Shown one piece after another: positions 1-46,840 of a stretch of 64,000 nt of DNA. The DNA is from a virus (Duplodnaviria; Caudoviricetes). The stretch is taken from IMG/VR virus record IMGVR_UViG_3300006922_000005; one strand, written 5' to 3'. Within the stretch, counting starts at the first letter, position 1. Each line of letters begins with the position of its first letter. Both the position numbers and the translations under genes were made by a program. Under the pieces are notes generated by a model. The model was not told the origin of the DNA, searched no databases, and saw only the letters and a program-made list of their open reading frames with translations.

Positions 1-64
1 AAGGCTGTAACACTACTAGCACAGTTACCCGCAGAATAAATACTCAAAACAACAAGGATTAAAC

Positions 65-256
65 ATGAGACATCGACTAGCAGGACTACTATTTTTAGGG
101 TTAGGCCTAATATTTTTATACAAAGACATGCACATGGGACATAGTATGCATTCAACCACACTACTAGGGTTTGGAGAAATGACGTGGATGTGGTTTACAA
201 TGGCTATAGTACACTTTGTCATACGTGATTGCTCATGTAAAAACTGTAGAAAATAG
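65..256 (+). CDS. small putative membrane protein
   Basis: 63-aa ORF with two hydrophobic segments; TAAATA at 37-42 upstream. Confidence 0.5.
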   Translation: MRHRLAGLLFLGLGLIFLYKDMHMGHSMHSTTLLGFGEMTWMWFTMAIVHFVIRDCSCKNCRK

Positions 257-456
257 GTGTCTATAACGCTGTATAAGCGTCATACACGCTAACTAATACT
301 GTAACGAGTACAAATACGTACGAAGTACGCTAGAACACGTTTAAGAGCCATTTAAACACCAAACATCCAAAAAGAACACTTTATAAGCACAGTCAAAAGC
401 ATGTAGGATAAATACTGGGTCATTTAAATACAGTTGCACTCCAAAAGTAACCAGGG

Positions 457-699
457 GTGGTCAAAAGGAACTGTACAATTTTTTTAAAAAAACGCTATCA
501 ATTTTGTGTGTACACACGTCAAACTGAATTCAAAGAAGTGGTTGCATGGTGCTCTACCAACGATCTAGACTATGAAATACACCTAGCAAGAACACGCTTT
601 TGGGTGCCCAGAGGACGATTGTTGACACAGTTTTTACTACGGTGGGGAACAGTGTGCAAGAACGTAGACGGAGAGAAGGACCACAGTTTGGGTAGATAA
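457..699 (+). CDS. hypothetical protein (start uncertain)
   Basis: 80-aa ORF; GTG start lacks an obvious SD; TAAATA at 409-414 and 425-430. Confidence 0.5.
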   Translation: MVKRNCTIFLKKRYQFCVYTRQTEFKEVVAWCSTNDLDYEIHLARTRFWVPRGRLLTQFLLRWGTVCKNVDGEKDHSLGR

Positions 700-798
700 A
701 AATGCTACCGCTTGTCGCTTCGCTCTAGTAAAAAATTTTCCGCAAACGCTTCGCTTGTTGTTGGCCTAGAACCACCCCCGCACACTATGTACACACAC

Positions 799-804
799 TA
801 AATA
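799..804 (+). promoter_or_regulatory. T4-type late promoter core (TAAATA) upstream of the riboswitch
   Basis: TAAATA; T4 late spacing puts +1 at 810, one base before riboswitch P1. Confidence 0.7.
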
Positions 805-809
805 CACAT

Positions 810-853
810 ACGTTCAGACAATAGTCCGGAAGTAGCATAATGCGAAGGAACGC
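810..853 (+). ncRNA. glutamine riboswitch, glnA (glutamine-I) class, cis-regulatory
   Basis: CGTTC(811-815)/GAACG(848-852) P1; GAC-AATA-GTC P2; CGGAAGTA junction; GCA-TAA-TGC P3; GAAG E-loop strand; conserved C after P1; SD GGAGG at 871-875 and ATG at 881. Confidence 0.88.
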
Positions 854-880
854 ACCTAACTTTAACAAAAGGAGGGTGAA

Positions 881-1072
881 ATGAGCAGATTCGATCATCT
901 ACACAAACAGTACAGAGAGGCTCGTGTGAAAGCACGTAAGAATGCCATACTTGCACGTAGTCGACTAAACGTTGACACTAATGCAGGTGGTACTAGTGGA
1001 TACACTGTCAAGCACGGAGCCAACACAGGTCTTGTGCTTAACCATATAACTGTATCCAAACGAACTATATAA
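881..1072 (+). CDS. small basic protein under glutamine riboswitch; possible GS-inactivating-factor-like
   Basis: 63 aa, strong SD (AAAAGGAGG), Arg/Lys-rich N-half with K-x-R-x3-I-L-x-R. Confidence 0.75.
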   Translation: MSRFDHLHKQYREARVKARKNAILARSRLNVDTNAGGTSGYTVKHGANTGLVLNHITVSKRTI

Positions 1073-1132
1073 CGACACTCAGGGGCTTGTTCAAACGATG
1101 AGTCCCTGTGCGTACACTCGTTAAATACACAT

Positions 1133-1813
1133 ATGCGTAAGTACATATGGCGACATCACGAAATACCCTTTGCACAACAGTTCACAGATCTAGCACCTCA
1201 ATTGATGCAAGACTTTTTACAAGTTCATCCTGAAGTACTAGAACAACAAGAACAGCAGAGCAAGGGCGATGAAGAAAAGTATTGGCATGACATCAACGGG
1301 TGGGTGCCTTTGGGCGTACTCTATCAAAAGCAGTGGGCAGACAAAGAACGTGTGATCAAAAAAAACTATCCCACAGCACACAAACTAGTAAAGATGTTTG
1401 GCGATGATGTAAACGTAGCAAGTTATAGTTTGCTCAAACCAGGTGCAAAGATTCCACTGCACAACGGAGATGAAGAAAACCGTTACTGCAAATACATAAG
1501 ATGTCATATACCTTTGATGATACCTGAAGGTGACATGGGTCTTTGGGTTATGGGTCAACGCATAGGTTGGAGAGATGGTGTGTTTGGTTTTGACAACTCA
1601 GGCGTACACATTGCATGGTCAAATGCTACCACAAACAGATTGGTTTTTATTATAGACATACACAGATCAGCATTGGGAATTCCACCCAACAAGTACATGC
1701 GTAGTCGTTGGGACTGGTGGGAATACACCAAGTTATGCACCGCCGCAGTGTTTAGAACTGTGGTAAATACGTTTAACAAGGAGATACTCTATGGCACAAA
1801 AAGAAGTAGATAA
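1133..1813 (+). CDS. aspartyl/asparaginyl beta-hydroxylase domain protein (AspH/LpxO-like 2OG-Fe(II) oxygenase)
   Basis: SLLKPGAKIPLHNGD...RCHIPLMIP...FGFDNSGVHIAWS...RLVFIIDI pattern. Confidence 0.8.
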   Translation: MRKYIWRHHEIPFAQQFTDLAPQLMQDFLQVHPEVLEQQEQQSKGDEEKYWHDINGWVPLGVLYQKQWADKERVIKKNYPTAHKLVKMFGDDVNVASYSLLKPGAKIPLHNGDEENRYCKYIRCHIPLMIPEGDMGLWVMGQRIGWRDGVFGFDNSGVHIAWSNATTNRLVFIIDIHRSALGIPPNKYMRSRWDWWEYTKLCTAAVFRTVVNTFNKEILYGTKRSR

Positions 1814-1973
1814 ACAAGGTATGATCAAGCAAGGCGAATTTACAGGTCAAAAGCCTACAGTAGATTCTGCAACAATCAATAAACCCGCTGAACGTGAAAA
1901 CAGTAAAGCATATCAACGTGCGGCTGATGGAAAAATTAAAACTACAACCCAGCAGTTAAAAAAACTAAGATAG
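1791..1973 (+). CDS. hypothetical protein
   Basis: 60-aa ORF, SD GGAG upstream, operon-like overlap. Confidence 0.55.
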   Translation: MAQKEVDKQGMIKQGEFTGQKPTVDSATINKPAERENSKAYQRAADGKIKTTTQQLKKLR

Positions 1974-1982
1974 GACTCTAAC

Positions 1983-2543
1983 GTGTATTCCGGACCTAAC
2001 AGTTTGCAGGGTAAAGTTCTAATATCTCAACCAACCACAAATAGTCCTTTCTTTAACGAAAGTGTTATACTTGTTTGTGAGCATCATGCCAAAGGTGCTT
2101 GGGGATTAGTAGTCAACAAACCACATCCTAGTTTAGATCTAAAAACAGTTTCACAAGGTATTGATTGCGGAATATATTCCAACGAACATGTGTTCCAAGG
2201 TGGTCCTGTAGCACAAGAAGGCCTGCATTTTATTCATACACCAGACTGTACTGTTAGTGATACGTTTAGTGTAACTCCAGGTTTGTGTGTTACCAGCAGT
2301 GAAGCAATGCTACGTGAAATAGGTGAGAACCGTGGTCCAAGCAATTGGAGATTGTGTGTTGGTGTTAGCACTTGGCAAGCAGGACAACTGGAAGGTGAAA
2401 TGGGAGGAGAACCTCCATGGACGCCACAACACAAATGGTTGTATACAACTTGTCCAATCAATCTATTAGAAATTCCTATACAGACTCTGTGGCAAAGTGC
2501 TACATCAGAAAGTATCAGTGAGAGTGTAAAAAACTTATTTTAA
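1983..2543 (+). CDS. YqgE/AlgH (DUF179) family protein
   Basis: F..SVILVCEH...GAWGLVVNKP, VFQGGPV, CVGVSTWQAGQLEGE motifs; GTG start. Confidence 0.85.
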   Translation: MYSGPNSLQGKVLISQPTTNSPFFNESVILVCEHHAKGAWGLVVNKPHPSLDLKTVSQGIDCGIYSNEHVFQGGPVAQEGLHFIHTPDCTVSDTFSVTPGLCVTSSEAMLREIGENRGPSNWRLCVGVSTWQAGQLEGEMGGEPPWTPQHKWLYTTCPINLLEIPIQTLWQSATSESISESVKNLF

Positions 2544-3973
2544 TCAGAGTCAACATTTAGATTCTTAAGCATGTCACGTAGTTTACTGCTTTGTGCTTTA
2601 CCGCTTATCTTACCTATTGTATCACCATCGCCTGGTTCACGTAGTGCAGTTTCTTCTCCTGCATCATGACTTGATTCTGTTACAGTTGATTGTTTCTTTA
2701 TACCGCTTACAATTGAACTACCTGTGCTTTGATATGATTGTTGTTCATCTTCTGCAAGATCTCTAATACGCAAACTGTCTACATCAAATTCTAAATCTAC
2801 TTTTTGTCCTACACCACTAGATGATCTAGTTTTCATAAACTGTATTTGATATCTTCCACGTTCTTTCATTGCTCTACTTGTAAAGATACCTATCACGTTA
2901 TCAGCAGTTTGTATCTTACTCAACCCTCCACTGATGTGCGAGTGATCAAATTCTATTTCTTCTACTGCCGCTCTGTTTAACTGCGATGCTGTCACAAACA
3001 CACACTGCATTTCCATTGCCAAGTTACGTAGTTCTTCACTTACATATTTGTCTTTAACAAACAAATCACTTGGCGATACTTTAATACTCAACGGCATCAT
3101 CAAATCTAAATAGTCAATCAATAACACATCTGGCTTACACTTGTTTTTAATTGACCATTCTTTAACATAACTTCTTAGATCATTTGCGTTCTTACCACTT
3201 GGCATATACTTAATTTGTATGCGTCCGCTTTTCTTGCCCATCATCTTAACTTTCATTTCTATGTCATCAAGATTCTTAAACACATCTCTAGTAGCAACTC
3301 CTGTAAGCATACTATCAATACGCATTGCCGTTAGTGCTTCTGAAAGTTCTAAACTAATATATAACACGTTCATGCCTTCTAGTGCAAAGTTCACAGCCAT
3401 ATTCTGCAAGAACAAACTCTTACCTGCACCTGATCCACCTGCCCATATATTAAGTTCACCTCTGTTGAATCCACCAAACAGTTTTCTATCAATGCTTGGC
3501 CAACCTGTGCTTACTTGTCCGTTGTTGTCTTTTAGTCCTTCTAGTCTACCTTTAGGATCAGCAAAGTAATCTGTACCCATATCTTTTGCAAGACCAATTT
3601 GTATTGCTTCTTTTACTAGTCCTTCAACTGGACCATACTCACCTTTTTCAAGTAAGTCAGCACTCTTAAGAATTGCACGTTCTAGTGCTTTGTGTCTACT
3701 AAACTGTTCAAATGTATCCAACAACCAATCTGTGTGTTCTTGTCCTATACTACTTGCATCTTTTAATGTTGTACCACAACTAGTGTTAACAATATCAAGT
3801 TCAGGCATAACTTTGTATTCATCAACATACTTGCTAATAAATTCTGCACCATCACGTAGTTGTTGATCAAAGTTTTCACTTTCAAAAATGCCTTGACATC
3901 TAACAAATGCTTCTGCATCTGAAAGAAACATTTCTAAAAACAACTTCTGTATTTCTTGATTAAAATCTTGCAT
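2540..3973 (-). CDS. replicative DnaB-like helicase (T4 gp41-like)
   Basis: Walker A GGSGAGKS, YISLELSE, LLIDYLDLM, TASQLNR, KTRSS. Confidence 0.93.
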   Translation of the reverse strand: MQDFNQEIQKLFLEMFLSDAEAFVRCQGIFESENFDQQLRDGAEFISKYVDEYKVMPELDIVNTSCGTTLKDASSIGQEHTDWLLDTFEQFSRHKALERAILKSADLLEKGEYGPVEGLVKEAIQIGLAKDMGTDYFADPKGRLEGLKDNNGQVSTGWPSIDRKLFGGFNRGELNIWAGGSGAGKSLFLQNMAVNFALEGMNVLYISLELSEALTAMRIDSMLTGVATRDVFKNLDDIEMKVKMMGKKSGRIQIKYMPSGKNANDLRSYVKEWSIKNKCKPDVLLIDYLDLMMPLSIKVSPSDLFVKDKYVSEELRNLAMEMQCVFVTASQLNRAAVEEIEFDHSHISGGLSKIQTADNVIGIFTSRAMKERGRYQIQFMKTRSSSGVGQKVDLEFDVDSLRIRDLAEDEQQSYQSTGSSIVSGIKKQSTVTESSHDAGEETALREPGDGDTIGKISGKAQSSKLRDMLKNLNVDSD

Positions 3974-3997
3974 AGTTATATTATACTACCTTTTTGT

Positions 3998-5014
3998 TTA
4001 TTCTGCAAAGTAAGTTTTCGCCAATAGTTGAATCTTCAAGCCTGTTACTTTAGATGATACTATTTTTTGCATTGTGTATATCTTACCGTATCGTTCAACT
4101 GCTTCTGCGACATCTTTAATATCGTTGTCGGGCCATTCAGGAAACGAAACGCTCCATCCATATTTAACTGCATCGGTTACCAGTTGTTCTCCACTTTGAT
4201 CCTTGTCAGGAACAACTATAACTTCACGTTGTAGACTGTTAATAAGCATACTCTGTTGATCGTTTACTTCATTACGTAGTACTGCTACACCGCCTACACT
4301 AATAGCATCAAACGGACCTTCTACTACAATTACAAACTGTCTATCATATCCTTGACCATCTAAGTTAAACACATAGCCTGGTTGACTATCTGTAATATAC
4401 TTAGGTGAGCCGTCGCCTAGTTTACGAGCAGTGTATCCGACTATGTCCCCTTGATAATAAAATGGAACTATCAGCCTTGACTTGTATGATCCTTCGCAGG
4501 TCCACATAAAGTCGTAGTCCTCAATATCAAGGCCACGATCGTTAACTATATATTCGACGGCTCTAATGAACTCTGGATCTAATCCACTTGGTTCGAGTGC
4601 TTTCCAATCATGCCACTCCATTATAGGTTTGGCACCAACTGGCAGTTCTTTCTTTTCAAATACAGGCAACTGTATAGTAGGTGTTCCACCGTCTATGACG
4701 TGCTCCTCTTTTATACGTAGTGCCTCCAAAGCAATTTTGGTTATCTCTGAGTTTGGCATTCCGAACCATCCAAGTAGTTTCTTCATCTTGTAAGATAAGT
4801 TTCTACCCGGAATGAATGATGCTGTATAGCCACAGTTAAAACAGTGATAACTCACTGTACCGTCACCATTAAACATTATTCCACCACGCTTACGTTTGTC
4901 TGTGCTTTCGCCGTTATGAACACAGCATGGAGCATCAAAAGAAATCCACCCACTAGGAGTTTGCTTTCTTTTTGCAGGCAAGGTAGTCGTAATGCTAGAT
5001 TGTATCGAATTCAT
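3998..5014 (-). CDS. DNA primase (T4 gp61-like)
   Basis: N-terminal Zn finger (PCCVH...YHCFNCG), TOPRIM VEGPFDA and VPDKD; adjacent to helicase. Confidence 0.88.
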   Translation of the reverse strand: MNSIQSSITTTLPAKRKQTPSGWISFDAPCCVHNGESTDKRKRGGIMFNGDGTVSYHCFNCGYTASFIPGRNLSYKMKKLLGWFGMPNSEITKIALEALRIKEEHVIDGGTPTIQLPVFEKKELPVGAKPIMEWHDWKALEPSGLDPEFIRAVEYIVNDRGLDIEDYDFMWTCEGSYKSRLIVPFYYQGDIVGYTARKLGDGSPKYITDSQPGYVFNLDGQGYDRQFVIVVEGPFDAISVGGVAVLRNEVNDQQSMLINSLQREVIVVPDKDQSGEQLVTDAVKYGWSVSFPEWPDNDIKDVAEAVERYGKIYTMQKIVSSKVTGLKIQLLAKTYFAE

Positions 5015-18153: not shown

Positions 18154-19184
18154 TCTGTTGGCTCAGGCTTGCCACACAGGTCAACAACTTTTGGCCATAT
18201 GTGTGTCCATGCTCTGCCTTGTGCCATTTCTGCTCGGTCCCATTGACAATATGAAAGATCATTAAACCATTGTTGAATTTCTTCACTACTTGCAAGTGCA
18301 GGAGTTTCAACTGCTTCTAATTGTTTGCTAGATACATGATATGCAAAGTTTCCTTCATCTACTGCAATAGTAGGAATACCATATGCAATAGCATCAATAG
18401 CACTACCACTACTATAAGTAATACAAGTTTTTGCTTCTTTTAAATCTTCTTGTAATGTTCTTGCAATTCCGTCACTCCATACTATGTTAGGATAATTTTT
18501 AAATACTATTTTTCCTATGTCACCAAAAAAGTTTTCATGTCCTTTTTCACTCATTGCAGGGTGAAATCTAATTCTTATTTCACGTTTTGTAATACTTCTA
18601 AGTTCTTCTATTGTGTCTAATAACCATTCGCCATGATCGGATCCACGTAGACTAGCATCGCCGGGTAACTGTGTAAGTATTAAAATGTTACCGTCTTTGT
18701 TATTAATCCAACCTTTCCATCTAACATATAAGTCACCAAATTTACTAAGTCTATCACCGTTTGAATTTTCGTTATTAAATTCTCCAGCACCACTTAGAAA
18801 GCCATTAAGTCCAATTCTATACATATCATGGTTACTTTGTTTTACAATACTCCTAGCAAGTAACGGAGTTTCAAGTACAATATAATTTTTACATTTTTCA
18901 ATTACACTATTTCTTACACGATGATGTAAATTTTCTCTTTCTTTTGCACTACCAAATATGATACCGACGTCTGCTGTTTCGTCTGCAACTTCGCCGTAAT
19001 CTAAACTAATCTCTACACCAATTTTACGGATTTCTTTAATATACTTTTGCATATTGAATTCTGTTAGTTCTTCTTTTACTTTTACACTTTGCGAAAAGTG
19101 TGTAACAAGGCCGCGATAGTATGCACGTAATACATCTTTTTCGCCGTTGTTTTGTCCTGTTAACATGTAGACTTTAATTTTCAT
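18150..19184 (-). CDS. KpsS/KpsC-like GT-B glycosyltransferase-like protein
   Basis: IRIRFHP...ITYSSGSAIDAIAYGIPTI. Confidence 0.7.
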   Translation of the reverse strand: MKIKVYMLTGQNNGEKDVLRAYYRGLVTHFSQSVKVKEELTEFNMQKYIKEIRKIGVEISLDYGEVADETADVGIIFGSAKERENLHHRVRNSVIEKCKNYIVLETPLLARSIVKQSNHDMYRIGLNGFLSGAGEFNNENSNGDRLSKFGDLYVRWKGWINNKDGNILILTQLPGDASLRGSDHGEWLLDTIEELRSITKREIRIRFHPAMSEKGHENFFGDIGKIVFKNYPNIVWSDGIARTLQEDLKEAKTCITYSSGSAIDAIAYGIPTIAVDEGNFAYHVSSKQLEAVETPALASSEEIQQWFNDLSYCQWDRAEMAQGRAWTHIWPKVVDLCGKPEPTE

Positions 19185-45813: not shown

Positions 45814-46539
45814 ATGGACAAACTGAAGATTAAATTTACTAAACCCCCCGGAGCAATTAATAGTTTAACAGCACAACAAGTAGTTGTTGATAAATTTGAA
45901 GATTGGGAAGAAATTCCTGATCCTATGCCTGCTACAAAGATGGTACCTGATTGGTTTAAACAAACTAAACCATTAGGAGGTCCTATTGATACTATGCCTA
46001 CTATTAAGAAATGTCCACCATTTTTAGATGCAATAACATCAGGATATATAATTAATTTTTGTTCTACACTTAATGTTAAACACATTACAGATTCACAAGT
46101 TTCTAAAACAGGTAAAGGGTCAATGTTTATGAGTTCACATGCTATTGGACAGTTTGAAAATGCTCCGTGGTATGGCAAACCTGTATTAAAATTTGCTAGT
46201 CCGTGGATTATTGAAACTCCGCCAGGTTGGAGTTGCTTTTTTACTCACCCATTAAATGTTCCAAATGATCAATATCATATGTTGAGTGGTATAGTTGATA
46301 CAGATACGTACAGAGTTCCTGTTAATTTTCCTTTTGTAATGAACACGCCGTTAGGAGGAGAATTTAATTTTGATACTAAAACTCCAATGGTACAAGTTAT
46401 TCCTTTTAAAAGACAAGATTGGGAAATGGAAGTTGGTACAACAGATTGGGACGAATGGAAGACTCACCAAGGAGTATTAGGAAACTCTGGTGACGAGGCT
46501 TATAAAAAGAACTTTCATATAAAGAAAAAATTTACTTAG
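45814..46539 (+). CDS. hypothetical protein, paralog of 9336-10043
   Basis: [30 protein letters not shown]; start moved to ATG 45814. Confidence 0.75.
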
Positions 46540-46840
46540 GAGTAACTGTAACAGTGCCCATGCCCTGTTTTACTTCAAACTTAACACCTTTATCATCGCC
46601 TACAATTTGAATGTCAGGACCACTAATACGCACAAGGTTAATCATTATATCGTAACGACTGCGTTTATCAGGGTTACTTAATATATCATATGCTTCTTTA
46701 ACTTTTTGAAAAACTTTTGGATCACCTTTTCTATCAGGGTGAGTTTTCATAGACAATTTTCTGTATGCTTCTTTAATTTCACTTTGAGAAGCACTAGCGT
46801 TAACGCCTAAAACTTTATATAAATTATCTTCTTGCGTCAT
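46532..46840 (-). CDS. J-domain (DnaJ-type) protein
   Basis: YKVLGV...IKEAYRKL...THPDR...[15 protein letters not shown]. Confidence 0.92.

Follow-up and report, generated by a model that had tools for sequence, protein, structure and literature searches.

Does a tiny gene that lies directly behind a glutamine-sensing RNA in a marine virus encode an inhibitor of glutamine synthetase (GS)? This question is raised by one locus of the IMG/VR virus record IMGVR_UViG_3300006922_000005, a stretch of 64,000 nucleotides (hereafter designated the window), in which an open reading frame (ORF) of 63 codons follows a glutamine riboswitch on the plus strand. An earlier note on this DNA had likened the product to IF7 (GifA), a GS inactivating factor of cyanobacteria. 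We found that the riboswitch directly targets this ORF and that the encoded micro-protein, which shows no homology to the inactivating factors, belongs to a family of SAR11 bacteria (Pelagibacterales) and their phages.

The glutamine-I aptamer and the gene behind it

The ORF listing and a search of Rfam agreed in placing a 63-amino-acid (aa) ORF behind a glutamine riboswitch, as the earlier note had stated. The match to RF01739 scored 46.9 bits (E 4e-7; gathering score, 35), covered model positions 1–53 of 53, and ended 24 nt before the ATG (Table 1). In the leader that follows, the bases CACCU, starting at the C directly 3' of P1 (the linchpin C of the aptamer), are predicted to pair with GGGUG across the Shine–Dalgarno (SD) region, and this platform hairpin was present in both the minimum free energy and the centroid folds of the RNA. 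The SD site is kept in all aptamer-bearing leaders, and the 5-bp outer helix in all 24 distinct leaders (39 loci), the pairing partner having been chosen by best complementarity; a double compensatory change occurs in one leader (CACUC:GAGUG), and single-sided changes that preserve the pairing in two. The assignment of the controlling riboswitch to the gifB class was thus correct, RF01739 lying directly 5' of the gene together with an SD-sequestering helix. In the gifB leader of Synechocystis, the ribosome-binding site is paired with the C that follows P1 and with adjacent bases until glutamine binding releases it, and this ON switch was shown experimentally (PMC6212724). Because the architecture of the gifB leader is analogous, the present leader points to translation being turned on at high glutamine, the condition under which the earlier note had supposed the product to be made.

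All of the related metagenomic loci that were examined have RF01739 aptamers, one or often two in tandem, directly 5' of a homologous ORF, and the genes farther downstream varied, being a RimK-type ATP-grasp gene, a pair of DsbA and Asp/Arg hydroxylase genes, or a convergent 2-oxoglutarate (2OG) oxygenase gene. The relatives, 57–64 aa long and 59–97% identical, show that the reading frame is maintained, and 58 representative clusters matched at E ≤ 1e-3 in an exhaustive profile search. Moreover, 436 viral contigs of IMG/VR contain a relative; 80 of them were fetched, and the aptamer was found 5' of the ORF in at least 33 of the 76 loci with enough upstream sequence. We conclude that the riboswitch targets the micro-protein ORF directly. 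At least one further viral locus (L190, 1290–1410) has a decayed aptamer copy (CGTTGG..., GAAGCAACG) with the CACCU/GGGUG platform intact, which suggests that some phage copies have lost ligand sensing yet kept the SD hairpin.

The ORF might be non-functional as a protein, that is, a mere leader or spacer through which the riboswitch regulates the downstream oxygenase, and its shortness and the lack of annotation in some cultured phage records, such as that of HTVC008M, would fit this. Such an arrangement is, however, highly improbable, given that the protein, with its invariant core, is conserved at identities of 97% down to ~25% at hundreds of loci in phages and hosts, that the downstream genes differ among the loci, and that both a hairpin and a second promoter-like box stand between the ORF and the next gene. 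Because this hairpin (1080–1108) and the second copy of a promoter-like 12-mer separate the two genes, the switch appears to govern the small ORF alone, the neighbouring gene probably having a start of its own.

The window has two exact copies of the 12-mer, each just 5' of a plus-strand gene, and the relatives carry TATAAATA or CTAAATA 6–10 nt 5' of their aptamers. These putative promoters suggest T4-type late transcription of the unit. At its other end, the hairpin past the stop codon, which was not called by a simple terminator scan, may delimit a monocistronic unit on its 3' side.

Comparison with the inactivating factors and the conserved core

The proposed likeness to IF7 had been drawn from the string K17-x-R19-x3-I-L-x-R26, which is indeed present in the window protein, and from an IF7 motif quoted in the earlier note, which proved about right: IF7-like ORFs linked to riboswitches in cyanobacteria read ...NRQQSMLxR.... 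These ORFs came from an aptamer pattern scan with one genome per species, in which the small ORFs downstream of cyanobacterial aptamers formed two classes, YRG-repeat and IF7-like. Eleven ORFs of the latter class (~50 aa), all located downstream of aptamers in cyanobacterial genomes, served as the IF7-like reference set and have invariant R21, R34, and R41 (spacing 13 and 7). In the cyanobacteria, the aptamers precede stand-alone DUF4278 (YRG) or stand-alone IF7-like ORFs, and one locus (L096) consists of three consecutive aptamer–YRG units.

When compared by hhalign with the 11 IF7-like ORFs, two alignments of the window family gave a probability of only 1.3–1.4% (P ~0.04); column-shuffled IF7 profiles reached the real score in 2 of 200 trials, and the reversed IF7 profile scored higher against the family (17.5) than the real one (14.1). 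Neither of the two arginines on which the likeness had been built is conserved, position 19 being Arg in 24% and Lys or Arg in 64%, and position 26 being Arg in 16%, of 105 non-identical family members. The third arginine position of IF7, 13 residues before R19, is occupied by His6 in the window protein; in IF7, each of the three arginines is indispensable, and losing any one abolishes GS binding (PMC6316151). A relationship to DUF4278, which the earlier note had also proposed to examine, was not borne out: Pfam detected PF14105 neither in the window protein nor in 54 family members, and hhalign of the family against the DUF4278 set gave a probability of 0.15%, whereas the cyanobacterial YRG ORFs, used as a positive control, matched PF14105 with E 6e-14. 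Homology to the Gif/IF7/IF17/DUF4278 proteins is therefore rejected on the basis of the profile score, the reversed control, the non-conserved arginines, His6, and the lack of a DUF4278 signal. As judged by sequence comparison, the window protein and IF7 share only basic-helix periodicity and charge, and the likeness is no more than composition would give, in keeping with the caveat of the earlier note that so short a similarity could be due to chance.

The family is characterized instead by a core of its own, V-(D/E)-x-N-A-x-G-T-S-G-Y-x-(V/I)-K-x-G-x-N-x-G-K-V-L-x-H, located behind the basic N-terminal helix. Among the 105 members, the conserved positions are V31, D/E32, N34, G37 (100%), T38, G40, Y41 (99%), K44 (99%), G46, N48, G50, K51, L53, and H55 (93%), in addition to R3 near the N-terminus (94%), and the window protein has all the invariant core residues except K51, which is replaced by Leu. 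The protein is small and basic, as first described, with 12 Lys and Arg against 3 Asp and Glu and a calculated isoelectric point (pI) of 11.4 (family median, 10.4; IF7-like ORFs, 11.0). Its supposed disorder was confirmed only for the C-terminal half, which is poorly ordered in AlphaFold2 models; residues 5–27 form a confident helix. With two different alignments, this helix was predicted at a pLDDT (predicted local distance difference test) of 80–94, and the core at 52–79 with only a small beta bridge. Segments that become ordered on a partner typically show such a confidence pattern, and the core is most likely one of them. Since the core does not fold alone in the prediction, docking onto a host macromolecule is likely.

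Neither Pfam nor NCBIfam contains a family for the window protein or its relatives, and the only library match was a weak one (E 0.0014) to the function-unknown phrog_32989 of PHROGs. Profile searches of the PDB gave nothing below E 0.3, and Foldseek against the PDB gave nothing below E 8 with models that are mostly helix plus coil and ill-suited to fold searching. The ESM Atlas returned the family's own unnamed cluster alone (score 0.78), and the source annotations of family members read 'hypothetical protein' throughout. A likeness of the core to KOW/L24-like and bL33-like proteins, seen by eye, was rejected on account of the different spacing and the lack of a Pfam match.

Distribution of the family and the probable host

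A family match was found in 310 of 401 Pelagibacterales genomes, almost always exactly one in each. In a class sample of 301 genomes, the query genome alone matched (0 of the 300 other alphaproteobacteria), and there was no match in 10 other aptamer-bearing genomes, which included SAR116, SAR86, Rhodobacterales, Porticoccaceae, and Crocosphaera. When 50,697 phage records were searched by tblastn, the 63-aa window protein as the query gave chance hits only, and a typical family member gave 17 matching records, 16 of which are cultured Pelagibacter phages and none of which is a cyanophage. The cultured pelagiphages with the family are the podoviruses HTVC011P, HTVC019P, and Gjalp, the siphovirus Kolga, and the myovirus HTVC008M, and the family hidden Markov model confirmed five pelagiphages with E values of 1e-15 to 1e-17. 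The host copies are located on chromosome-size contigs, and their neighbours are conserved: one group has rlmN together with a flavodoxin-like gene, and the largest has an IscA/ErpA-like gene. Collectively, these sequence searches identify the family as a SAR11-specific, near-core host gene that has been repeatedly acquired by SAR11 phages of all tail types.

Because the family is restricted to SAR11 and its phages, the window phage most probably infects SAR11, and the scenario of a non-cyanobacterial host, which the earlier note had raised, is the most likely one. Marine picocyanobacteria use the glutamine-II aptamer (PMC6212724). An identical 63-aa protein is present on a 266-kb contig, and the distribution of the family argues that this jumbo-phage lineage infects SAR11. 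A copy behind an RF01739 aptamer was also found on the host side, in a metagenome-assembled genome of Pelagibacteraceae (SAR11-IIIa), and its 90%-identity protein cluster includes a protein of the isolate IMCC9063.

In many of the host copies and in some of the viral ones, the place of the glutamine aptamer is taken by two abutting H-type mini-pseudoknots of ~24 nt each, located just 5' of the SD site. Each is composed of a 4–5-bp stem, a loop of 4–5 nt, a linker rich in A, and a tail that can pair with the loop, and the loop and tail covary (UCAC/GUGA, CCAC/GUGG, CUAC/GUAG, and GUC/GAC). These leaders had no match in Rfam at E ≤ 10. The possibility that the host-type leader is a variant of the glutamine aptamer was rejected, as it has no Rfam match and does not contain the CGUUCA/GGAACG core shared by the two glutamine classes. 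The commonest host form, found in the largest SAR11 group (L249–L258), is a divergent 56-aa protein with the core GANGTQDY..KKGVNKD, which resembles the versions of cultured phages; it is encoded ~100 nt 3' of the IscA/ErpA-like gene and has a leader with repeated GCATATCT elements. The member of HTVC008M (~52 aa; KC465899.1 ~18223–18378) is unannotated and lies between the genes for the DNA end-protector and the baseplate tail-tube initiator.

As for the surroundings, the window is a fragment of a T4-related myovirus (35.5% G+C) that encodes a terminase, a sheath protein, a gp15-like protein, a UvsX/RecA-like protein, DnaB, and a primase, and its positions 1–4000 gave no megablast match among the 50,697 phage records. 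In the ~550 nt 5' of the riboswitch unit (257–808), no ORF is convincing, the sole frame, of 80 aa at 457–699, being a mechanical one, and one contig from an RNA library spans 531–1232. Genes for 2OG oxygenases were also found near the micro-protein gene in two further phage contexts (L006 and L010).

Table 1 Features of the riboswitch unit and its surroundings in the window, with related features at other loci (positions prefixed by a locus number refer to that locus)
Feature	Position	Strand	Remarks
Promoter-like 12-mer TAAATACACATA	799-810	+	Resembles T4-type late promoter TATAAATA; abuts 5' end of aptamer
Glutamine-I riboswitch aptamer (glnA RNA motif, RF01739)	809-856	+	Single copy; full-length match in Rfam
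Expression platform hairpin (predicted)	853-878	+	CACCU 853-857 with GGGUG 874-878 across SD region; inner CUUU/AAAG helix
SD site AAGGAGG	869-875	+	Read from sequence; 5 nt 5' of ATG
63-aa basic micro-protein ORF	881-1072	+	ATG start; helix residues 5-27; conserved Gly-rich core residues 31-55
8-bp hairpin (CAGGGGCU / AGUCCCUG)	1080-1108	+	13-nt loop; 8 nt past stop codon; without U-tract
Second exact copy of promoter-like 12-mer	1122-1133	+	Before 2OG oxygenase gene
2OG oxygenase, Asp/Arg beta-hydroxylase type	1133-1813	+	Next gene after micro-protein ORF; Pfam E 3.5e-18
AlgH-like DUF179 protein	1983-2543		Pfam E 5e-32
Mini-pseudoknot leaders	L145:1456-1504; L153:1468-1516; L217:1331-1379; L219:355-402		Host and viral
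AdoMet decarboxylase fusions	L158:3001-3585; also L183, L195, L171		Phage contigs

Candidate targets and known systems

On balance, we consider it probable that positions 799–1108 constitute a late-transcribed, glutamine-switched unit carrying a phage copy of the SAR11 micro-protein, that the host is SAR11, and that the product docks on a host macromolecule. In this large marine myovirus, the unit would consist of the promoter-like box, the glutamine-I aptamer, the SD-sequestering hairpin, the 63-codon gene, and the closing hairpin. In the absence of glutamine, CACCU would cover the ribosome-binding site by pairing with GGGUG. Once glutamine has bound, the linchpin C would be drawn into the aptamer core, the hairpin would be weakened, and the gene would be translated. 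The micro-protein would then dock onto a host macromolecule.

Several observations weigh against parts of this reading. The promoter-like motif YTAAATAC is not enriched in the window (10 found against 11.6 expected). The contigs from RNA libraries of four studies that cover 790–1350, including the ORF, are compatible with transcription but neither prove it nor give a start site, and uncovered parts provide no evidence. Covariation in the outer helix of the platform is thin, with most leaders near-identical, and the ON polarity is carried over from gifB by analogy. The host assignment draws on one gene family; the neighbouring AlgH-like gene gives no SAR11 signal, only 2 of 61 SAR11 genomes matching (30% identity), and the phage terminase and helicase are closest (~50–55% identity) to those of jumbo phages such as Pseudomonas phage PA5oct and Agrobacterium phage Atu_ph07. 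No glutamine aptamer was detected at the 20 best-scoring host loci by the Rfam scan or at 12 further loci by eye, and the copies of cultured pelagiphages also lack it. Because most host and cultured-phage copies are without the aptamer, glutamine control is frequent in the family but not intrinsic to it. Any target to which the protein may be tied is a candidate. As such, RNA or the ribosome may be ranked slightly above a nitrogen-assimilation protein (GS or the ammonium transporter Amt), followed by DNA.

An RNA-binding or ribosome-associated factor that folds on RNA, possibly autoregulates through its own leader, and is carried by phages to tune host translation is a tentative possibility. 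The protein is very small and strongly basic, its gene belongs to the single-copy near-core of a streamlined lineage, its conserved core is not predicted to fold alone, and many host and some viral copies have tandem, covarying mini-pseudoknot leaders. Structured leaders of this kind are typical of autoregulated ribosomal-protein genes. The host neighbours, which include rlmN, a partial transfer-messenger RNA (tmRNA) match, and tRNA-Met in different lineages, provide a further hint, but such synteny is weak and inconsistent. Moreover, no ribosomal or RNA-binding family was matched in Pfam, NCBIfam, or the PDB; the exact sequence of the second knot occurs essentially once per genome (one extra loose match in five genomes); and mini-pseudoknot arrays in the phage window are not above chance, with 17 matches against 15–32 in shuffled sequences and none in tandem.

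A factor inactivating GS or the ammonium transporter would be analogous, not homologous, to IF7/IF17, replacing the PII and GlnE missing in SAR11 and being deployed by the phage at high glutamine; we regard it as unlikely. SAR11 bacteria lack GlnB, GlnD, GlnK, and NtrBC (PMC3870248), and GlnE was found in 0 of 61 SAR11 genomes, with the control genomes positive. With PII and GlnD absent and GlnE not detected, post-translational braking of GS is unaccounted for in SAR11, leaving a gap that such a factor could fill. The sensor class of gifB with its apparent ON logic, the small size and strong basicity shared with the inactivating factors, and the core predicted to be disordered unless bound also speak for it. 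So does the occurrence of the same aptamer class in SAR11 (and in SAR86 and SAR116) 5' of amt, glnA (GS-I), a short type-II-like GS gene, and glutamate synthase-like ORFs (gltB/gltD), these gene names having been read by eye from the N-terminal sequences and not assigned by family search. Against it stand the lack of homology to IF7, IF17, and DUF4278, the non-conserved arginines of the inactivating-factor type, and the absence of genomic linkage to glnA or amt at the host loci examined. In addition, the leaders of most SAR11 host copies contain no glutamine aptamer, and in cultured pelagiphages the gene lies in late or structural modules and is not preceded by a riboswitch. It is distinctly unlikely that the family as a whole constitutes the missing PII- and GlnE-independent post-translational nitrogen brake of SAR11, with glutamine-gated phage copies throttling or redirecting nitrogen flux late in infection. 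As a separate observation, aptamers of the glnA type, often in tandem, occur widely among marine proteobacteria, SAR11, SAR116, and SAR86 included, and are also found before a 468-aa ORF (loci L012–L131).

We give still less credence to a late protein that binds or condenses DNA as a packaging aid or internal virion protein, with the riboswitch timing or scaling its synthesis to host nitrogen, which we hold to be very unlikely. The late-promoter-like context and the strong positive charge would suit such a role, as would the location of the gene just before the terminase genes in podoviruses and between the DNA end-protector and baseplate genes in HTVC008M. Phage contigs also contain natural fusions of the micro-protein (helix plus core, or core alone) to a complete S-adenosylmethionine (AdoMet) decarboxylase (SpeD/AdoMet_dc), with varying junctions; this enzyme belongs to the polyamine pathway, which supplies counter-ions of DNA, and the fusions hint at a chemistry of polyamines or nucleic acids. 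A virion component would not, however, be expected to have an orthologue that is nearly universal and single-copy in the host and has a regulated leader of its own, and no known DNA-binding fold was matched. Further representatives are joined to pieces from the N-termini of HPPK-like (Pfam) or LpxD-like (by eye) proteins, and these fusions may be chimeras.

Earlier publications have described this aptamer class, tandem arrangements of it, and its occurrence in pelagimyophage-like phages (PMC2864571, PMC6212724, PMC9004378). In the literature searched, we found no description of the protein family, nor of its occurrence throughout SAR11, its acquisition by phages, or its frequent gating by glutamine. 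New here are the protein family and the host lineage for a riboswitch-gated micro-protein. SAR11 is the most abundant bacterial lineage of the surface ocean and lacks the classical nitrogen regulators PII, GlnD, and NtrBC (PMC3870248). In this lineage, we describe an order-specific, near-universal micro-protein that is missing from the annotation libraries searched, is directly controlled by glutamine in one subclade of SAR11 as well as in many SAR11-type phages, and has been captured by podo-, sipho-, and myoviruses of SAR11. With 50–70 residues, it is an easily synthesised candidate for the coupling of SAR11 and phage physiology to nitrogen status.

Among known systems, IF7 and the IF7-like ORFs resemble the window protein in size (~50–65 aa), pI (~11), and a basic helix with R-x3-(I/M)-L-x-R spacing, and all are likely structured only when bound. 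In contrast, the arginines invariant in IF7 correspond to the poorly conserved R19 and R26, and neither IF7 nor IF17 has a counterpart of the G-T-S-G-Y...K-x-G-x-N-x-G...H core. The closest likeness in regulation is to the gifB leader of Synechocystis sp. PCC 6803 (PMC6212724), where RF01739 likewise occupies the 5' untranslated region of a gene for a small basic protein and the bases after P1 pair with the ribosome-binding site, so that glutamine should turn translation on. The window protein is nevertheless unrelated to IF17, having neither DUF4278, nor the IF7-type C-terminal region, nor the invariant arginine triad; gifB resides on a cyanobacterial chromosome, whereas the window belongs to a phage of probable SAR11 host, for which GS inhibition is a candidate function. 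The DUF4278/IF17-like proteins of marine picocyanobacteria (e.g., PMM1846) are also riboswitch-gated micro-proteins of a streamlined marine bacterium expressed at nitrogen excess, but they have YRG repeats (PF14105), a glutamine-II aptamer, and a host of another phylum.

Melnitz-like and pelagimyophage genomes carry glutamine riboswitches, and the switch was assigned to the tmRNA gene ssrA, with no protein target named (PMC9004378). In Methylophilales phage Melnitz (MZ577097.1 ~46396–46566), the aptamer is annotated inside 'SsrA' and is followed by an anti-SD/SD leader of the kind present in the window and an unannotated plus-strand ORF of 32 codons encoding a basic product (MTLYQQ...), so that the switch probably controls this micro-ORF and not tmRNA. 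The record annotates a minus-strand hypothetical coding sequence at the site of the micro-ORF, and RNA-library contigs matching the window branch into the start of this micro-ORF. The published ssrA reading of phage glutamine riboswitches is hereby corrected, the aptamers at the loci examined preceding tiny basic ORFs. The Melnitz-like and pelagimyophage switches thus share with the present one the aptamer class and the setting in T4-like marine phages of streamlined heterotrophs, whereas the 32-codon basic ORF of Melnitz is of another family than the conserved 63-aa family of the window, which has orthologues in the host.

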